Of a stretch of 46,946 nt of DNA, positions 1,708 to 8,178 are shown piece by piece. Within the stretch, counting starts at the first letter, position 1, and every line of letters starts with the position of its first letter. The notes below the pieces were generated by a model that worked only from the letters and a program-made list of their open reading frames with translations, was not told the DNA's origin and did not search any database. This DNA comes from Pedobacter sp. (GTDB lineage Bacteria; Bacteroidota; Bacteroidia; Sphingobacteriales; Sphingobacteriaceae), in assembly GCA_043758305.1 (NCBI GenBank), contig JAYVNR010000098.1:1-46946 (forward strand). The letters are read 5' to 3'. The position numbers and the translations under genes were made by a program.

Positions 1708-2336
1708 AGCTTTGGCTCTTCAATGGCTTCCATCAGAGCATACTTCTTTATCCAGCCGGAAACAGAATCCAGCCCGTCCAAGCTCATCAGGTTGGTAAAT
1801 ACAAAAGGCCTGCCTTTGCGCATAGCCCTAGATTCGCGTTCCATAACGCCTAAATCAGCATGAACGTAAGGTGCCAAATCTATTTTATTGATAACCAGCA
1901 AATCGCTGCGGGTAATACCGGGACCGCCTTTGCGGGGAATCTTATCGCCCTCGGCAACATCAATTACAAAGATGCTCAGGTCGGCGAGATCCGGGCTGAA
2001 AGTGGCAGAAAGGTTATCCCCGCCGCTCTCTATAAATATAAGCTGGATATCGGGGAAACGTGAAGCCATTTCATCAACAGCTTCCAGGTTCATGCTGGCG
2101 TCTTCGCGGATGGCGGTATGCGGGCAGCCACCGGTTTCAACCCCAATGATGCGCTCGGCTGGGAGCAAGCTGTTTTTGGTGAGGAATTCTGCGTCTTCTT
2201 TTGTGTAAATATCATTGGTAATCACACCAATGCTGTAATCATCGGCCATTAATCGCGATAGACGCTCGATTAAAGCTGTTTTGCCCGAGCCAACGGGCCC
2301 TGCAATCCCAATTTTTATGTAGGTTCTTTCAATCAT
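1698..2336 (-). CDS. ureG: Urease accessory GTPase UreG
   Basis: P-loop [23 protein letters not shown] Ni-binding CPH motif, ESGGDNL and NKIDL G-motifs. Confidence 0.95.
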
Positions 2337-2578
2337 TAACTGAACAATTTTCTAATTACCTCATCTTTGCCGAGATTAAAATGTTGAGATATTCTGGCAG
2401 TAATTGAATTAAGCGTACCTATTTTTAAAGGGCTGTGGTTAGGGATAACTAAGTGGTGTTGACCTTTTTGGTTTGTAGTAAGCATAATATGGCTACCATT
2501 TTGCCTAACGGTTTCGTAACCAAATACTTTAAGATGTTTAACAAGGTTTTTGCCTGAGATATCTCTGGGGGTTTTCAT
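2336..2578 (-). CDS. hicA: HicA-family mRNA interferase toxin (YcfA-like)
   Basis: 80 aa. K.L...[13 protein letters not shown]......[18 protein letters not shown] matches the HicA pattern (GSH...PH...L..GTL..I). ATGA overlap with the upstream ORF and TAATG overlap with ureG. Confidence 0.8.
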
Positions 2579-2784
2579 AAAGCTATAATCTCATCCTTCA
2601 CAAAGTGGAGGTGAGCAAATGAGGGAGAATTTTCATCGCTATCAAAATAAAGGCTTATGCCGCTCTTAATATTTTCCTTTAATTCATCTACTGTCTCGCC
2701 TTCTGCAAAAATACCTAAGTTGGCCGCCTCTGCGTGGTAGCCGCCTTCCTCGGCTTCGTGCACTAAAAAAGTTATTTCCGTCAT
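2575..2784 (-). CDS. hicB: HicB-like antitoxin (UPF0150 fold), short form
   Basis: MTEITFLVHEAEEGGYHAEAANLGIFAEGETVDELKENIKSGISLYF is typical of the HicB/UPF0150 N-terminal domain. Start taken at MTEITF (2784); the ORF-track start at 2823 adds 13 unconserved residues. Confidence 0.7.
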   Translation of the reverse strand: MTEITFLVHEAEEGGYHAEAANLGIFAEGETVDELKENIKSGISLYFDSDENSPSFAHLHFVKDEIIAL

Positions 2785-2845
2785 ATCTCTAAAGTAAGCA
2801 AAATTTTTAAAACAGGTTGGCACAAACAGAAGCGAATTTTGGCAC

Positions 2846-2878
2846 AGTCATCCGATGACTTCGAGTCATCGGATGACT
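2846..2878. repeat. Nested 33-nt near-perfect palindrome between the ureF stop and hicB
   Basis: agtcatccgatgact-tcg-agtcatcggatgact. Each 15-mer is self-complementary, and the two are reverse complements of each other. Confidence 0.85.
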
Positions 2879-2880
2879 CT

Positions 2881-3564
2881 CTAAGACATGTACAACCTTG
2901 AATATAACACTTCATGCTGCATGCTGCGGATATCAAAACCGCTGCAACAAATACCCAACATTTCTTTATCCGGATTTATAGATTTCTCTACCATTTCATG
3001 TATTAGGGGCTGCAATGAGAACAATATCTTTTGCCCTTCCACCTGACCTAACGGAACCAGTTTCACGCTGTTAGTTACCATTCCGGCAGCGGCATTGTAG
3101 CAGAAAGCGGCAAGTGCTTCGCGTTTTTTGATGTTTAGCGATTGTGCTATTATGCCAAAGGCGATGCAATAATTTCCTGGTAAGTTTTTTGCTTCTACAC
3201 CTGTTTTAAATGCATTCAATAGCTCGCTTTTATAAAATTCAGAAAACAGCTTTACTAAGCGAAATCCTAATTTGTGGCTTGCTTCACGTATTTCTCTGGG
3301 CAGTTTTACTGCCCGGCACTCATCATCAAGCATTTGCAGCAAACCAAAATCATTTGCTAATGCTGCATCGTACGATAGGGAAACAAAAGCCAGATCGGTG
3401 TGCAGGATATTTTTAGATAACATTTCTGAAACAAATGTTTCTGCAGTTTCGGCATTGTGCACAATGCCAAGCTGAACATAGGTTTCCAATCCTGCAGAAT
3501 GCGAGAATCCGCCAATGGGGAGAGCCGTATCGGCAAGCTGCAGCAGGCTTAAAAGTTGGTTCAT
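2881..3564 (-). CDS. ureF: Urease accessory protein UreF
   Basis: LLQLADTALPIGGFSHSAGLETYV N-terminal UreF signature; 4-nt overlap with ureE. Confidence 0.9.
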   Translation of the reverse strand: MNQLLSLLQLADTALPIGGFSHSAGLETYVQLGIVHNAETAETFVSEMLSKNILHTDLAFVSLSYDAALANDFGLLQMLDDECRAVKLPREIREASHKLGFRLVKLFSEFYKSELLNAFKTGVEAKNLPGNYCIAFGIIAQSLNIKKREALAAFCYNAAAGMVTNSVKLVPLGQVEGQKILFSLQPLIHEMVEKSINPDKEMLGICCSGFDIRSMQHEVLYSRLYMS

Positions 3565-4058
3565 GATGGATTTGTGAGTTGCATAATTTTAGAAAACAAA
3601 CTGGAGCCAGATCCATGGGGATGTACTGAAGTTCGCAATGGATTTAGCAATTTCCGTTCGCCTTGTTCAATCATGTGATAGGAAGCTTTTAACATCCGGA
3701 AAAGCGGGGCATCGAACGGCACCAGTATTTCTTCATCCTGGTAAAAAAGCGGCAAATGTTTATTTCCTATTTCATAACAAATAGAAGCCATTTCAAACAT
3801 ATTCTTGGGGCTTATGATGATAGCTGCACAAGAAATAATTTCAACAGCGATAATAGTATTATCGTCTTCAAAAAGGATATCGCCTTGCGTAAGATTTTGA
3901 TTCTCTTTCAGGAATTTCAGGGTTAGCTCCCTGCCCGATCGGGTGCGCTTGTGCAGGATGCGCTTATTAGTTTCGTACCATTCTAGTTCAAGCCAGTCGA
4001 TGGTTTTATTATGAGGTGGCGATGAAGTGAGATTTGAGGATTTTTGGGTAATGAGCAT
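3561..4058 (-). CDS. ureE: Urease accessory metallochaperone UreE
   Basis: 165 aa between ureC and ureF. CYEIGNKHLPLF matches the UreE GNRH-type core. No long His tail. Confidence 0.8.
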   Translation of the reverse strand: MLITQKSSNLTSSPPHNKTIDWLELEWYETNKRILHKRTRSGRELTLKFLKENQNLTQGDILFEDDNTIIAVEIISCAAIIISPKNMFEMASICYEIGNKHLPLFYQDEEILVPFDAPLFRMLKASYHMIEQGERKLLNPLRTSVHPHGSGSSLFSKIMQLTNPS

Positions 4059-4136
4059 TATATATTTAAACGATTTATGTCCGCTCTTGCGCTAAAATGG
4101 ATTTTATGCTTTATAAAACATATCAACCGCTATAAA

Positions 4137-5852
4137 TTAAAACAAAAAATACCGCTGCGCCATTGGCAATACAGAAACTGGCTGGCAGGTAATGTGCACG
4201 CCATCAACTTTTACTTCGTAGTTTTCCGGATTTACATCAATTTGCGGAGTGGCATCATTGTGTATCAAATCTTTCTTAGAAATGTTGCGACAGTTATTAA
4301 CGGGCAAAACAATTTTTTCCAGTCCGTAACTATGTACTTTATTATTCTCTAATGAAATTTTCGACACAAAGGTGATGCAGGTTTTGAACAATGCTTTGCC
4401 ATACGCACCGAACATGTGCCTGTACATTACGGGCTGAGGAGTGGGGATGGATGCGTTTGGGTCGCCCATTTTACTGGCTATTATCATTCCACCTTTGATG
4501 ATCATTTCGGGCTTAACCCCAAAAAAAGCCGGTTTCCATAAAACTATATCTGCAAATTTCCCCTCCTCGAGCGATCCCACATATTCTGAAATGCCATGTG
4601 AAATAGCAGGGTTGATGGTATATTTAGAAACGTAGCGTTTTACCCGAAAATTATCATTGTCTTTTCCTTCGTCCTCGGACAAAAAACCTCGTTGTTTCTT
4701 CATTTTATCGGCAGTTTGCCAGGTACGGATAATCACTTCTGCCACCCTGCCCATGGCTTGAGAATCTGAGCTCATCATGCTGAACACACCCATATCATGC
4801 AAAATATCTTCTGCTGCAATTGTTTCGGGGCGAATTCGAGAATCGGCGAAAGCCACATCCTCAGGCACTGATTTATCCAGATGGTGGCAAACCATCAGCA
4901 TATCCAAATGCTCATCAATGGTGTTAACGGTGTAAGGGCGGGTTGGATTAGTAGATGAGGGCAGAATATTGGGATACATTGCGGCTTTTATAATATCTGG
5001 CGCATGGCCCCCGCCCGCTCCTTCTGTGTGGAAGGTATGGATAACCCTGCCGTTAATAGCGTTTATTGTATCTTCCAGGAAGCCTGATTCATTCAAAGTA
5101 TCAGTATGGATGGCAACCTGAATATCGTATTTATCAGCTACCTTTAATGATGCATCTATCACGGCAGGCGTTGAGCCCCAGTCTTCGTGTATTTTTAAAC
5201 CTAGCGCACCGGCTTCTATCTGTTCTTCGAGAGGTGCAGTAGCAGCGCAATTGCCTTTGCCAAAAAAACCCAGGTTCATGGGAAATGCATCGGCAGACTG
5301 AAGCATTTTTTCGATGTTCCATGCGCCGGGGGTTACTGTAGTGGCGCTTGTACCATCGGCGGGACCGGTGCCTCCTCCGATCATGGTTGTAATGCCGCTG
5401 AAAAGGGCATGGTCAATTTGCTGCGGGCAAATAAAATGGATGTGCGTATCAATGCCTCCGGCTGTGGCAATGAGCCCAGCTCCCCCGTGCACTTCTGTAG
5501 ATGCGCCAATGATGAGATTTTCATCTACGCCATCCATTGTATCGGGGTTCCCGGCTTTTCCTATGCCCACAATTTTGCCGTCTTTAATACCAATATCTGC
5601 TTTTACAATTCCCCAATGGTCTATGATCATCACACTGGTTATCACAAAATCGAGCACATTTTCACTGCGGGTGCGGGTAGCGGATTGAGCCATGCCATCG
5701 CGTATGGTTTTGCCGCCACCGAATTTTGCTTCATCGCCATAAACTGTATGATCCTTTTCAATTTCAATAATAAGGTCCGTATCGGCAAGGCGAACCCTAT
5801 CGCCAACCGTTGGGCCGTACATATTAGCGTATTTTATGCGATTGATATTCAT
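4137..5852 (-). CDS. ureC: Urease alpha (catalytic) subunit
   Basis: 571 aa. [19 protein letters not shown] (carbamylated Lys), [28 protein letters not shown] and SSDSQAMGR motifs are all present. Confidence 0.97.
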
Positions 5853-5869
5853 TTGATTTGTTTATTTAT

Positions 5870-6176
5870 TTAACCACAAAGGGCACAAAGCCCTCACAGA
5901 GATATACAAAGCATTACGTCTTGATCTGTGCGCTTTGTGACTTCCTCAGTGTTCTTTGTGGTTATTTTTCCTTTTAACCACTAAGGCCACAAAGTCCTCA
6001 CAGAGATATACAAAGCATTACGTCTTGATCTGTGCTCTTTGTGACTTCCTTAGTGTTCTTTGTGGTTATTTTTCCTTTTAACCACTAAGGCCACAAAGTC
6101 CTCACAGAGTGAATAAAAATAAATTTCTTTCTCTATCTGTGCTCTTTGCGTATTCCTCAGTGTTCTTTGTGGTGAA
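5870..6176. repeat. Three tandem copies of a 104-bp hairpin-forming unit (5870-5973, 5974-6077, 6078-about 6176) in the ureB-ureC spacer
   Basis: Copies 1 and 2 differ at 5 positions. Copy 3 shares both ends but has a replaced centre. Unit ends (aaccacNaagNNcacNaag / cttagtgttctttgtggtt) form a roughly 19-bp imperfect inverted repeat. The CACAAAG/CTTTGTG motif occurs about 4 times per unit. Confidence 0.9.
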
Positions 6177-6184
6177 TTTGCAGT

Positions 6185-6493
6185 TCAATCTAAGTCTCCA
6201 TTCACCTTGTTATTAAATCCAAAAACCCTCCTCTGACCTCCATAAGCTACTAATTCCACCTCTTTCTCTTCTCCCGGCTCAAATCGTACCGCTGTGCCTG
6301 CTGCAATATTCAAGCGCATCCCAAAAGCCTTTTTTCTATCGAATTCCATCTGTTTATTTACTTCAAAAAAATGATAATGAGATCCAATTTGCACTGGCCG
6401 ATCGCCCGTATTGACAACAACTATTGTTACAGTTTTTCTGCCTGCATTACATTCAATGGGTTCGCTTTTTAAAATATATTCGCCGGGTATCAT
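6185..6493 (-). CDS. ureB: Urease beta subunit
   Basis: MIPGEY......I..N.GR....[19 protein letters not shown] is the canonical UreB sequence. Confidence 0.95.
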
Positions 6494-6792
6494 CGTATTG
6501 GGTTATGAACAGTTACAAGTTTCGTCCCATCGGGAAAAGTTGCTTCAATCTGTATTTCATGGATCATTTCAGGAATGCCTTCCATTACATCCTCGGGAGT
6601 TAAAATTGTAGCACCAAACTGCATAAGCTGTGCTACAGATTGGCCATCGCGGGCGGCTTCTTGTAATCGGCTGCTGATCAGTGCAATGGCTTCGGGATAA
6701 TTAAGTTTCAGGCCACGGGCTTTTCTTTTTTCGGCAAGCTCCCCGGCAAGGAAAAGCAATAATTTCTCAGATTCGCGAGGTGTTAAGTGCAT
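6490..6792 (-). CDS. ureA: Urease gamma subunit
   Basis: [29 protein letters not shown] is the canonical UreA sequence; ATGA overlap with ureB. Confidence 0.95.
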
Positions 6793-6990
6793 AAGTAAGG
6801 GAATGGCCAGTGGTTAAAATATGAATTTTTATATAATTAAGCCAAACGTGCTAAAATAATTAACAAATCAATAAACCAAGCAAGTCATAATACATAGAAA
6901 ATGAGATGTATTTCACCAGTTTCTGCATTATTAGCAATACTCCTTATATAATCCTTAAGGAAATACCTTCTACAATTTAACTATAAATAT

Positions 6991-7018
6991 TATATTTGGA
7001 TAACTAACCCGGTTATCC
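6991..7018 (+). promoter_or_regulatory. Candidate Bacteroidota -7 box (TATATTTG, 6991-6998) overlapping a 7-bp dyad (ggataac-N7-gttatcc, 6998-7018) upstream of the peroxidase gene
   Basis: Perfect match to TAnnTTTG 38 nt before the ATG at 7036. No clear -33 TTG. The dyad is visible by eye. Confidence 0.35.
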
Positions 7019-7035
7019 GATCTGTTTATTGATCA

Positions 7036-8178
7036 ATGAAAAAACTTCTTGCCCTTTCGTTCATACTTTCATTTGTGGTGCTGGCATTTATCCGCATGGA
7101 TGCTGATGACACAGATTTTCCTACCGAAATAGGTGCTTTGCCTTTAAAGGGCCCAGTTAAGGCAGAAGATTCTTTAAAAGTTTCTCTTGGACGATTGCTT
7201 TTCTGGGATCCCATACTCTCAGGAAATAAAAAAGTAGCATGTGCCAGTTGCCATAGCCCCCAAAACGGGTATACAGATAATCTGGATCTTTCTATTGGAG
7301 TGGATGGTAAAGGAACGGGATTTAACAGATGGTTTGCAGAAGGCAGCAATGGCCATTTTGCAAAAAGGAATTCGCAAACTTTGTTAAATGTTATTTTTAA
7401 TGGGATTGATAAGACCGGCAATTACGATCCTGCAACAGCCCCTATGTTTTGGGACAGCCGTGCAAAAGGGCTGGAAATGCAAGCAATTGGCCCGCTAACA
7501 AACCACGAAGAAATGCGTGGCAACAGCTATGAAGAAAAGACAGCTTTAGACAGTATTGTTTATCGGTTAAATGGGATAAAAGAATATAAAAAACTATTCG
7601 AGAAAGCTTTTGGCAGGAAGAACCCTATAACTTCTGATAATATTACTAAAGCTTTAGCATTATTTGAAGGGACTTTGCTTGCTAATAATTCGCCTTTTGA
7701 TCAGTATATGAGGGGCGATAAAACTGCTATGACCAAAACACAGATTATTGGCATGAAAACCTTTGTTTCTAACGGTTGTGTGAAATGCCATAGCGGCCCA
7801 ATGTTATCTGATTATAAGCTGCATGTACTTGCAGTGCCAGACAATCCTAAGCTAGATTCGATAGACAAAGGAGCAAATCAAACCAATGCTTTCCGCACTG
7901 CATCTTTACGAAACCTGAAATTTACATGGCCATATTTTCATAATGGCTCATTTTATTACCTTGATCAAGCAGTAGCCTTTTACAGGACGATTTCTAATGG
8001 CTTAAGCACAAACCGCCGCATCCCGCAAAGGGAAATTGATATTGTTGCAAAAACTATTGCTTTAGCCGGGCCGGATGAAATTGTTGCATTTTTAGATGCC
8101 CTAAATGATGGCTCGTTTGATAAAACTGTACCTGCAAGCGTGCCAAGCAAGCTTCCAGTAGGTGGAAATATGAATTAA
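7036..8178 (+). CDS. Di-haem cytochrome c peroxidase / MauG family protein (secreted)
   Basis: Signal peptide. Two CxxCH haem sites (CASCHSP, CVKCHSG). PMFWD.RA and FRT.SLRN motifs are typical of the CCP/MauG family. Confidence 0.85.
   Translation: MKKLLALSFILSFVVLAFIRMDADDTDFPTEIGALPLKGPVKAEDSLKVSLGRLLFWDPILSGNKKVACASCHSPQNGYTDNLDLSIGVDGKGTGFNRWFAEGSNGHFAKRNSQTLLNVIFNGIDKTGNYDPATAPMFWDSRAKGLEMQAIGPLTNHEEMRGNSYEEKTALDSIVYRLNGIKEYKKLFEKAFGRKNPITSDNITKALALFEGTLLANNSPFDQYMRGDKTAMTKTQIIGMKTFVSNGCVKCHSGPMLSDYKLHVLAVPDNPKLDSIDKGANQTNAFRTASLRNLKFTWPYFHNGSFYYLDQAVAFYRTISNGLSTNRRIPQREIDIVAKTIALAGPDEIVAFLDALNDGSFDKTVPASVPSKLPVGGNMN

Follow-up and report, generated by a model that had tools for sequence, protein, structure and literature searches.

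The presence of a toxin-antitoxin (TA) pair in the middle of a metabolic operon raises the question of whether the pair works for the operon or is simply carried by it. In this study, we have addressed this question for a hicB-hicA pair (hicBA) located between the urease accessory genes ureF and ureG of a Pedobacter sp. contig (JAYVNR010000098.1, assembly GCA_043758305.1), of which the whole analysed stretch of 46,946 nucleotides (nt) is called here the window and is numbered along its forward strand. A first-pass annotation of this DNA had left two readings, a selfish module fixed in the operon and a pair recruited to control urease maturation. Our comparisons indicate that the ureF-ureG spacer is occupied by a predicted Class 2 copy of a large Bacteroidota hicBA family, and we consider it probable that this copy is a self-maintained TA passenger, neither a urease component nor a dedicated regulator of urease maturation.

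The open reading frame (ORF) list, together with profile searches, gives the minus-strand order ureA-ureB-ureC-ureE-ureF-hicB-hicA-ureG-ureD-permease. This agrees with the order described in the first-pass annotation, and independent gene calls on an identical public contig (L001) return the same 69-aa and 80-aa ORFs and a ureD of 265 aa. The gene upstream of the insertion, ureF (2881-3564, minus strand like all genes of the operon; Pfam UreF, 149 bits), ends with a TAG at 2883-2881 and is followed, after a spacer of 96 nt, by hicB (2575-2784; 69 aa, ATG start), by hicA (2336-2578; 80 aa) and by ureG (1698-2336; NCBIfam ureG equivalog, 367 bits), whose N-terminus has the same length as in its relatives. 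The overlaps reported earlier are read directly in the sequence: the hicB stop and the hicA start share ATGA (2578-2575), and the hicA stop and the ureG start share one base in TAATG (2338-2334). The accompanying claim that no room is left for a terminator or a promoter holds at the hicA/ureG junction but not between ureF and hicB, where the 96-nt spacer contains a hairpin and promoter-like -7 boxes. ATGA overlaps are also present at ureA/ureB, ureE/ureF and ureG/ureD, and junctions of this compactness are thus usual in the urease operon. No second (paralogous) hicBA copy was found in the window.

The 80-aa ORF is firmly predicted to encode a HicA-family mRNA interferase toxin. Its product matches Pfam HicA_toxin (PF07927) over residues 9-59 with 46.8 bits (cut-off 27, E = 3.2e-12), and 20 family members all have G28-S29-H30 and H41-H42. 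In profile searches, the GSH motif falls opposite KGSHIK in the HicA of S. pneumoniae (5yrz) and opposite GSH in 9svk. In the HicAB family at large, the histidine of this G-S-H motif is the catalytic residue of HicA, an mRNA interferase that is kept inactive by the N-terminal domain of HicB. Direct sequence searches of the PDB with HicA and with HicB gave no matches, and the weak matches that we obtained there came only from profile searches.

The 69-aa protein scores 13.9 bits against Pfam UPF0150 (PF21748) and 12.7 bits against HicB_lk (PF15919), with cut-offs near 27, and its Pfam membership as judged by sequence alone appears remote. Searches of both ORFs with profile models, as proposed in the first-pass annotation, thus identify HicA outright and leave HicB sub-threshold. 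Among 32 members of its family, 18 have UPF0150 as their strongest Pfam match, though below threshold (best E = 9.9e-5), and seven match HicB_lk at E <= 1. An AlphaFold2 (AF2) model built on a 33-sequence alignment (pLDDT 88.5, pTM 0.75) has the order strand-strand-strand-helix-strand, with strands at residues 3-10, 16-20 and 26-29, a helix at 32-46 and a last strand at 56-61. Its best Foldseek matches are the B. pseudomallei HicB structures 6g26 and 6g1c (probability 0.99, 40 residues, root-mean-square deviation (rmsd) 1.3-1.4 A); Thermus thermophilus 2yzt (67 aa) and the annotated antitoxin 3k6q rank next. The family profile also aligns with residues 10-70 of E. coli HicB, with which it shares EGGY, (Q/E)GET and H-x-H-F (E = 0.4), and the family has an invariant C-terminal motif, AHLHFVKDE, of which the window protein retains the invariant HLHF-V-DE. 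Of 53 metagenome loci, about 46 have a HicA homologue encoded just after hicB, in most cases overlapping it by 4 nt, and the rest have no HicA match; the pair is also present in all six further loci that were looked up singly. The predicted fold, the structural match and the pairing with hicA together support the view that the 69-aa protein is a HicB N-terminal domain devoid of a DNA-binding domain: no residues remain past this domain, and the sequence stops where the linker would begin.

This architecture is that of the Class 2 hicBA modules, which combine a HicB of 60-90 aa devoid of a DNA-binding domain with a HicA of 60-85 aa, hicB coming first and the two genes being linked or overlapping (PMC10865869). 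They are the commonest bicistronic hicBA arrangement, and their regulation is unknown (Gerdes, 2024, mBio, PMC10865869). As far as prediction goes, the window pair has every trait listed for the class, with products of 69 and 80 aa, the ATGA overlap and hicB upstream. It had been correctly noted that the 69-aa HicB lacks a DNA-binding domain, but this is no anomaly, being the commonest hicBA architecture (PMC10865869). A HicB of this kind would be unable to autorepress, and the pair departs from a canonical autoregulated type II TA system both in this respect and in that the only palindrome, at 2846-2878, is not conserved upstream of other cassettes.

The ureF-ureG junction was compared across relatives. 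Scanning one genome per species with the window UreF yielded 23 related operons, none with more than 64% UreF identity. In 21 of these ureG comes directly after ureF, with roughly 4-150 nt separating the matches, which confirms that the two genes are normally adjacent. The presence/absence polymorphism for which the first-pass annotation proposed to look at this junction is also found: these 21 operons are free of the insert, one of the 23 carries the pair intact, and an additional operon, met among the metagenome loci collected through hicB, holds a decayed remnant. The intact case is a Chitinophagaceae metagenome-assembled genome (MAG; L014, 6709-9789), in which ureF is followed by hicB (77% identical), hicA (71%, the closest homologue of the window HicA), an RNase_T gene, a cNMP/CBS/DUF294 gene and ureG. 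These two further genes encode an RNase_T-family exonuclease of 230 aa and a cNMP-binding/CBS/DUF294 nucleotidyltransferase of 635 aa, so that 3.3 kb of foreign genes have accumulated at this junction. The decayed case is a metagenome urease operon (L077). The stretch between its intact ureF and ureG (3845-4790) contains a hicB with a frameshift, a hicA of which the first codons alone are left, and a retropepsin-like ORF that is broken. In the same operon, the gap between ureG and ureD (5491-6104) contains a 78-aa ORF overlapping the gene of a 126-aa PIN_3-domain protein. An unrelated insertion, a 248-aa TPR-repeat membrane protein (6733-7479), lies at the ureF-ureG junction of a Ferruginibacter MAG (L018).

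In a bootstrapped neighbour-joining tree of UreC, UreE and UreF, the window operon groups with the insert-free operon of Mucilaginibacter sp. PPCGB 2223 (86% bootstrap) and L077 with the insert-free operon of Segetibacter aerophilus (100%). A clade of the three hicB-bearing operons (window, L014, L077) was recovered in 0 of 100 bootstraps; the urease tree has no resolution at its deep nodes, and a five-taxon clade containing all three carriers has 5% support. At the nucleotide level, the hicB remnant of L077 is 88.5% identical to a cassette from a non-urease context (L032), as against 77% to L014 and 70% to the window, which implies mobility. The stretch between ureF and hicB also differs in length (window, 96 nt with a hairpin; L014, 27 nt; L077, 157 nt), and no remnant coding for hicB or hicA was detected in the ureF-ureG spacers of the insert-free operons. 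By these comparisons, the cassette is polymorphic among related operons, is able to decay while the urease genes are kept, and has moved between contexts. Unlike ureD, ureE, ureF and ureG, hicBA does not show the conserved presence of the urease accessory set, and its distribution indicates that it is not an accessory component.

Outside urease operons, the family is large and is found among very different neighbours. A word-indexed search gave 171 close homologues of HicB (60-81% identity), nearly all of 68-80 aa, and those from named organisms belong to Bacteroidota, such as Mucilaginibacter, Segetibacter and Sphingobacteriales; an exhaustive profile search gave 2278 clusters at 50% identity. 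Some records name these homologues "RNase H-like HicB family nuclease" and others "2-oxoisovalerate dehydrogenase", the latter label being unsupported by fold or genomic context. The context is non-urease in 52 of 53 metagenome loci and in five individually checked contigs, and the typical cassette lies co-oriented amid unrelated genes. Examples are cassettes directly upstream of ilvA and co-oriented with it (L027 99-544, L063 4001-4449, L078 1569-2017; HicB 54-77% identical), after a LUD-domain gene downstream of ftsH (L035, L081, L084), inside glycosyltransferase clusters (L079) and amid oxidoreductase genes (L072). In L063 and L078, ilvC is found beyond the ilvA cassette on its upstream side, a region that the contig of L027 does not reach; the three loci represent a second case in which this hicBA family recurs at one operon junction.

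In many loci, hicA is truncated or frameshifted, or is unmatched beside an apparently intact hicB (L039, L044, L040, L052, L054, L057, L058, L063; L055, L059, L060, L066, L067). The toxin gene thus seems to be lost first in this family, and frequent hicA decay leaving orphan hicB is the usual pattern of TA-module turnover. Across homologues of both ORFs, the proportion of non-synonymous differences (pN) is about 0.15-0.23 against 0.71-0.95 for synonymous ones (pS), with synonymous sites saturated; the dozens of homologues of each ORF and the low pN argue that both are real genes. The window cassette is, however, no more conserved than cassettes in more than 55 unrelated contexts. Dating the divergence of the window and L014 cassettes by dS was uninformative because of the saturation. 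Composition gave no sign of recent transfer, the GC content of the cassette (0.35-0.42) being within the range of the operon and of the window. PADLOC defence models matched neither HicB nor HicA.

Based on these results, we propose the following working for the module as a passenger. HicB would bind HicA and block its active site, and the order hicB before hicA together with the ATGA overlap would keep antitoxin output at or above toxin output. The pair would be transcribed within the urease polycistron, by reading through the hairpin that follows ureF, with additional transcription probably coming from a putative -7-type promoter of the cassette itself, just upstream of hicB. Ribosomes ending hicA would reinitiate at the overlapping ureG AUG (UAAUG), or ureG would initiate independently. 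The module would persist by its own TA properties, that is addiction and/or phage defence, and its main effect on the operon would be structural, placing ureG-ureD-permease 0.55 kb further from ureF and possibly adding an internal promoter.

The candidate promoter deserves some comment. Bacteroidota promoters have a -7 element, TAnnTTTG, located 4-5 nt from the transcription start (PMC6847099, PMC9723704), and initiation of translation in this phylum is not led by a Shine-Dalgarno sequence (PMC6847099). The promoter-like region of the window (2785-2806, minus) contains two near-matches to this element, TACTTTAG at 2796-2789, which lies 4 nt before the hicB ATG, and AAATTTTG at 2806-2799, 14 nt before it, each with five of the six specified bases. 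A perfect TAAATTTG, with a run of T before it, occupies positions -12 to -5 from the hicB ATG in 18 of the 34 cassettes compared (for example L028 3989-3996), and we infer that most cassettes carry a putative promoter of their own, whose hicBA transcript would be leaderless. In place of TAAATTTG, the members of a distant sub-clade (L063-L065) have TATATTTG, some 25 nt upstream. Since the cassette family bears its own promoter box upstream of hicB, transcription of ureG need not rely on the ureA promoter alone.

The other element of the spacer is a perfect 15-bp hairpin with a 3-nt loop (2846-2878, minus), which begins 2 nt past the ureF stop and reads AGTCATCCGATGACT-CGA-AGTCATCGGATGACT, each arm being itself near-palindromic (AGTCATC-S-GATGACT). 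From the stop codon of ureF to the start of hicB, the sequence (99 nt) has a folding energy of -28 kcal/mol (z = -3.6). The motif occurs once in the window and is absent from 76 other loci except the identical L001; hairpins with a stem of at least 9 bp lie upstream of other cassettes in only 3 of 38 loci, with unrelated sequences. Strong hairpins are present in insert-free ureF-ureG spacers (L003, z = -3.6; L013, z = -4.1; L017, z = -5.9; L019, z = -3.5). Because hairpins recur in insert-free spacers and are not a trait of the cassette family, the window hairpin is probably a native element following ureF, the cassette having been inserted between it and ureG, and it might serve in protection of the mRNA 3' end or in partial attenuation. 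A role as HicB operator or as an end of the cassette was ruled out, given that HicB has no DNA-binding domain and that the motif is unique and not a family trait. A clear intrinsic terminator is likewise unsupported, as no U-tract follows the hairpin and a terminator scan does not list it. The Saprospiraceae spacers L013, L015, L017 and L019 all carry the motif TACTGAGGGGG between ureF and ureG, and that of L017 has two ACGGAC...GTCCGT palindromes; TACTGAGGGGG and the hairpins may together form a conserved spacer element in this family.

Several observations weigh against regarding hicBA as a mere passenger. The same cassette family sits at the ureF-ureG junction of three divergent operons (window, L014, L077), and as random insertion is unlikely to hit one junction three times, it is possible that the site is preferred, that the insertion is old and shared, or that it confers some selective advantage. 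The hicA/ureG junction of the window is moreover the tightest reliably called downstream junction of the family, others leaving 18-60 nt and a value of -4 in L028 resting on a doubtful TTG start; this hints at long residence and at integration into the translation of the operon. The TACTTTAG box has an A for the T at position -6, which is otherwise nearly invariant, and the internal promoter of the window may be weak or dead. Finally, HicB lies under the Pfam gathering thresholds and its Foldseek E-values are weak (0.16-0.6), the latter because the domain is small (69 aa). A serious though rather unlikely competitor is a single ancient entry of hicBA in an ancestor shared by the operons of the window, L014 and L077, followed by vertical inheritance and several losses, so that no hotspot is needed. 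Junction and orientation are identical in the three operons, the lack of resolution in the deep nodes leaves space for such an ancestor, the saturated synonymous sites between the window and L014 fit an old divergence, and the ilvC-ilvA and LUD-domain junctions also hold divergent cassettes, which suggests long residence. Yet it requires at least three losses with insert-free sisters on the well-supported Mucilaginibacter and Segetibacter branches, it would have left no coding remnant in any insert-free spacer, and it fits poorly with unlike upstream flanks and with an L077 remnant that is closer to a non-urease cassette than to the urease-embedded copies. The opposite view of the recurrence would be that the accessory spacers of soil Bacteroidota urease operons, ureF-ureG above all, are a recurrent landing site for leaderless mini-TA cassettes carrying promoters, which are then wired into the operon by the internal promoter, by a reinitiation ramp into ureG-ureD-permease and by release of HicA when urease transcription shuts off, because a HicB devoid of a DNA-binding domain cannot autoregulate. 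If true, growth would be tied to nitrogen and urea status, but we give this elaborate scheme little credence.

The recruitment proposed in the first-pass annotation would mean that UreG, UreD and the permease are adjusted in amount or timing relative to UreABC by HicA cleavage or by the HicB:HicA stoichiometry, or that growth is arrested when transcription of the operon stops. The three occurrences at one junction, the stop/start overlap of hicA and ureG (which resembles the other overlapping junctions of the operon), the long-term purifying selection on both genes and the closeness of the L014 HicA could all be read in this way. Nevertheless, the same family is equally conserved in more than 55 unrelated contexts, 21 of the 23 related operons, among them the sister operon of the window, have no cassette, the copy in L077 is a pseudogene where the urease genes are intact, and in L014 hicA leads into two unrelated inserted genes rather than into ureG. 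The literature points the same way: among papers mentioning both HicA/HicB and urease, the most promising of which we examined, none was found to link them, the terms standing in unrelated sections. We therefore set this proposal aside as very improbable. The other proposal, a selfish module fixed in the operon, fares better in its first half, since selfishness fits the comparisons, than in its second, the closest relatives sampled having no cassette and L077 a decayed one. The pair could also act as an abortive-infection or other defence system, with its position in the urease operon incidental; a defence role has been argued for HicA contexts (PMC10865869), and the family is patchy, mobile and often decayed in its toxin. 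We judge this unlikely as a full account, because PADLOC models match neither protein, the neighbours here and at most loci are housekeeping or metabolic genes with no defence islands, and Class 2 modules come without experimental data (PMC10865869). At the other extreme, the pair could be an inert relic, with intact ORFs but an inactive toxin or no expression. The imperfect -7 box of the window and the decay of hicA in many family members would suit a neutral remnant, but neither ORF is shortened, every family-invariant residue is kept (among them GSH/HH in HicA and HLHF-V-DE in HicB), pN is far under pS, and the pair, being inside the operon, is bound to be transcribed each time transcription reaches ureG from upstream; we find this improbable. 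A TA passenger that maintains itself is what we prefer among these explanations.

Upstream of ureF lie ureA (6490-6792), ureB (6185-6493), ureC (4137-5852) and ureE (3561-4058). The ureB-ureC spacer (5853-6184, 332 nt) contains 2.9 tandem copies of a 104-nt unit (5869-6173, 89% match), and a motif like the CACAGAGAACAC of this repeat region is also seen upstream of the L077 hicB remnant. A scan of the operon against Rfam gave a single match, 5_ureB_sRNA (90.8 bits, 5408-5706 on the plus strand, antisense within ureC), which we do not take for a regulatory RNA, as it most likely reflects coding conservation with Helicobacter ureB. Downstream of ureG, ureD (904-1701; Pfam UreD, 149.5 bits) likely starts at the ATG at 1701, giving 265 aa; this ATG overlaps the ureG stop as ATGA, and the TTG at 1707 proposed by the ORF finder is a less likely start. 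The final gene (213-914), which encodes a 233-aa membrane protein, is a putative metal permease by its position after ureD, where a homologue with 53-74% identity is found in most related operons. The protein has no significant match in Pfam or NCBIfam; it contains HTISGPDH, which we take to resemble the HPxxGxDH motif of HupE/UreJ-type proteins, and Ni transporter is a plausible, putative label for it.

These results have some practical consequences. For annotation, the 69-aa gene can be named as a HicB-type antitoxin, and the pair should not be counted among the urease accessory genes. The locus is a clean natural case in which a regulated metabolic operon contains a TA cassette whose last stop codon overlaps the start of the following gene, and it could be used to ask how Class 2 hicBA is controlled and whether TA insertions shift operon stoichiometry. 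The small TA cassettes in urease spacers, namely hicBA in the window and L014 and the hicB remnant and PIN-domain pair in L077, also provide a modest lead on insertion-site preference.

How, then, does this pair compare with the systems already described? The E. coli K-12 (6hpb) and B. pseudomallei (6g26) HicAB pairs have a HicA of the double-stranded RNA-binding domain (dsRBD) type with its catalytic histidine in G-S-H, a motif that the predicted window HicA shares, and a HicB whose N-terminal, partial RNase-H-like domain covers HicA; the window HicB model superposes on chain B of 6g26 over 40 residues at 1.4 A. In contrast to the window protein, however, these HicB proteins continue into a C-terminal helix-turn-helix (HTH) or ribbon-helix-helix (RHH) domain and autorepress at an operator, the E. 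coli gene order is hicA then hicB rather than hicB then hicA, and sequence similarity between the window pair and these pairs is below significance (E = 0.4, no phmmer match). Closer in size are the single-domain UPF0150-type proteins such as T. thermophilus 2yzt, which likewise stand alone, have about 67-70 residues and adopt a HicB-like fold (Foldseek TM of about 0.65, but with an rmsd of 6 A and E = 0.5), although the window family has its own invariant C-terminal AHLHFVKDE. In terms of genomic arrangement, the relA-mazEF locus of E. coli offers a parallel, being a TA pair co-oriented and co-transcribed with a housekeeping gene, as the embedded hicBA of the window would be, so that synthesis of toxin and antitoxin tracks a physiological operon. 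It belongs to another TA family, however, its MazE binds DNA and autoregulates, and mazEF is not known to have a stop/start overlap with a downstream metabolic gene. The nearest counterpart is Class 2 hicBA, with the same hicB-hicA order, overlapping stop and start, protein sizes and HicB devoid of a DNA-binding domain (PMC10865869). Two features set the window pair apart from that description: embedding within a metabolic operon is not described in PMC10865869, and the conserved -7 box of its family, 4 nt from the hicB ATG and suggestive of a putative leaderless transcript, is unmentioned in the papers that we examined. All in all, the window pair is a further Class 2 hicBA; what is mildly unusual about it is only that its family recurs at one junction.

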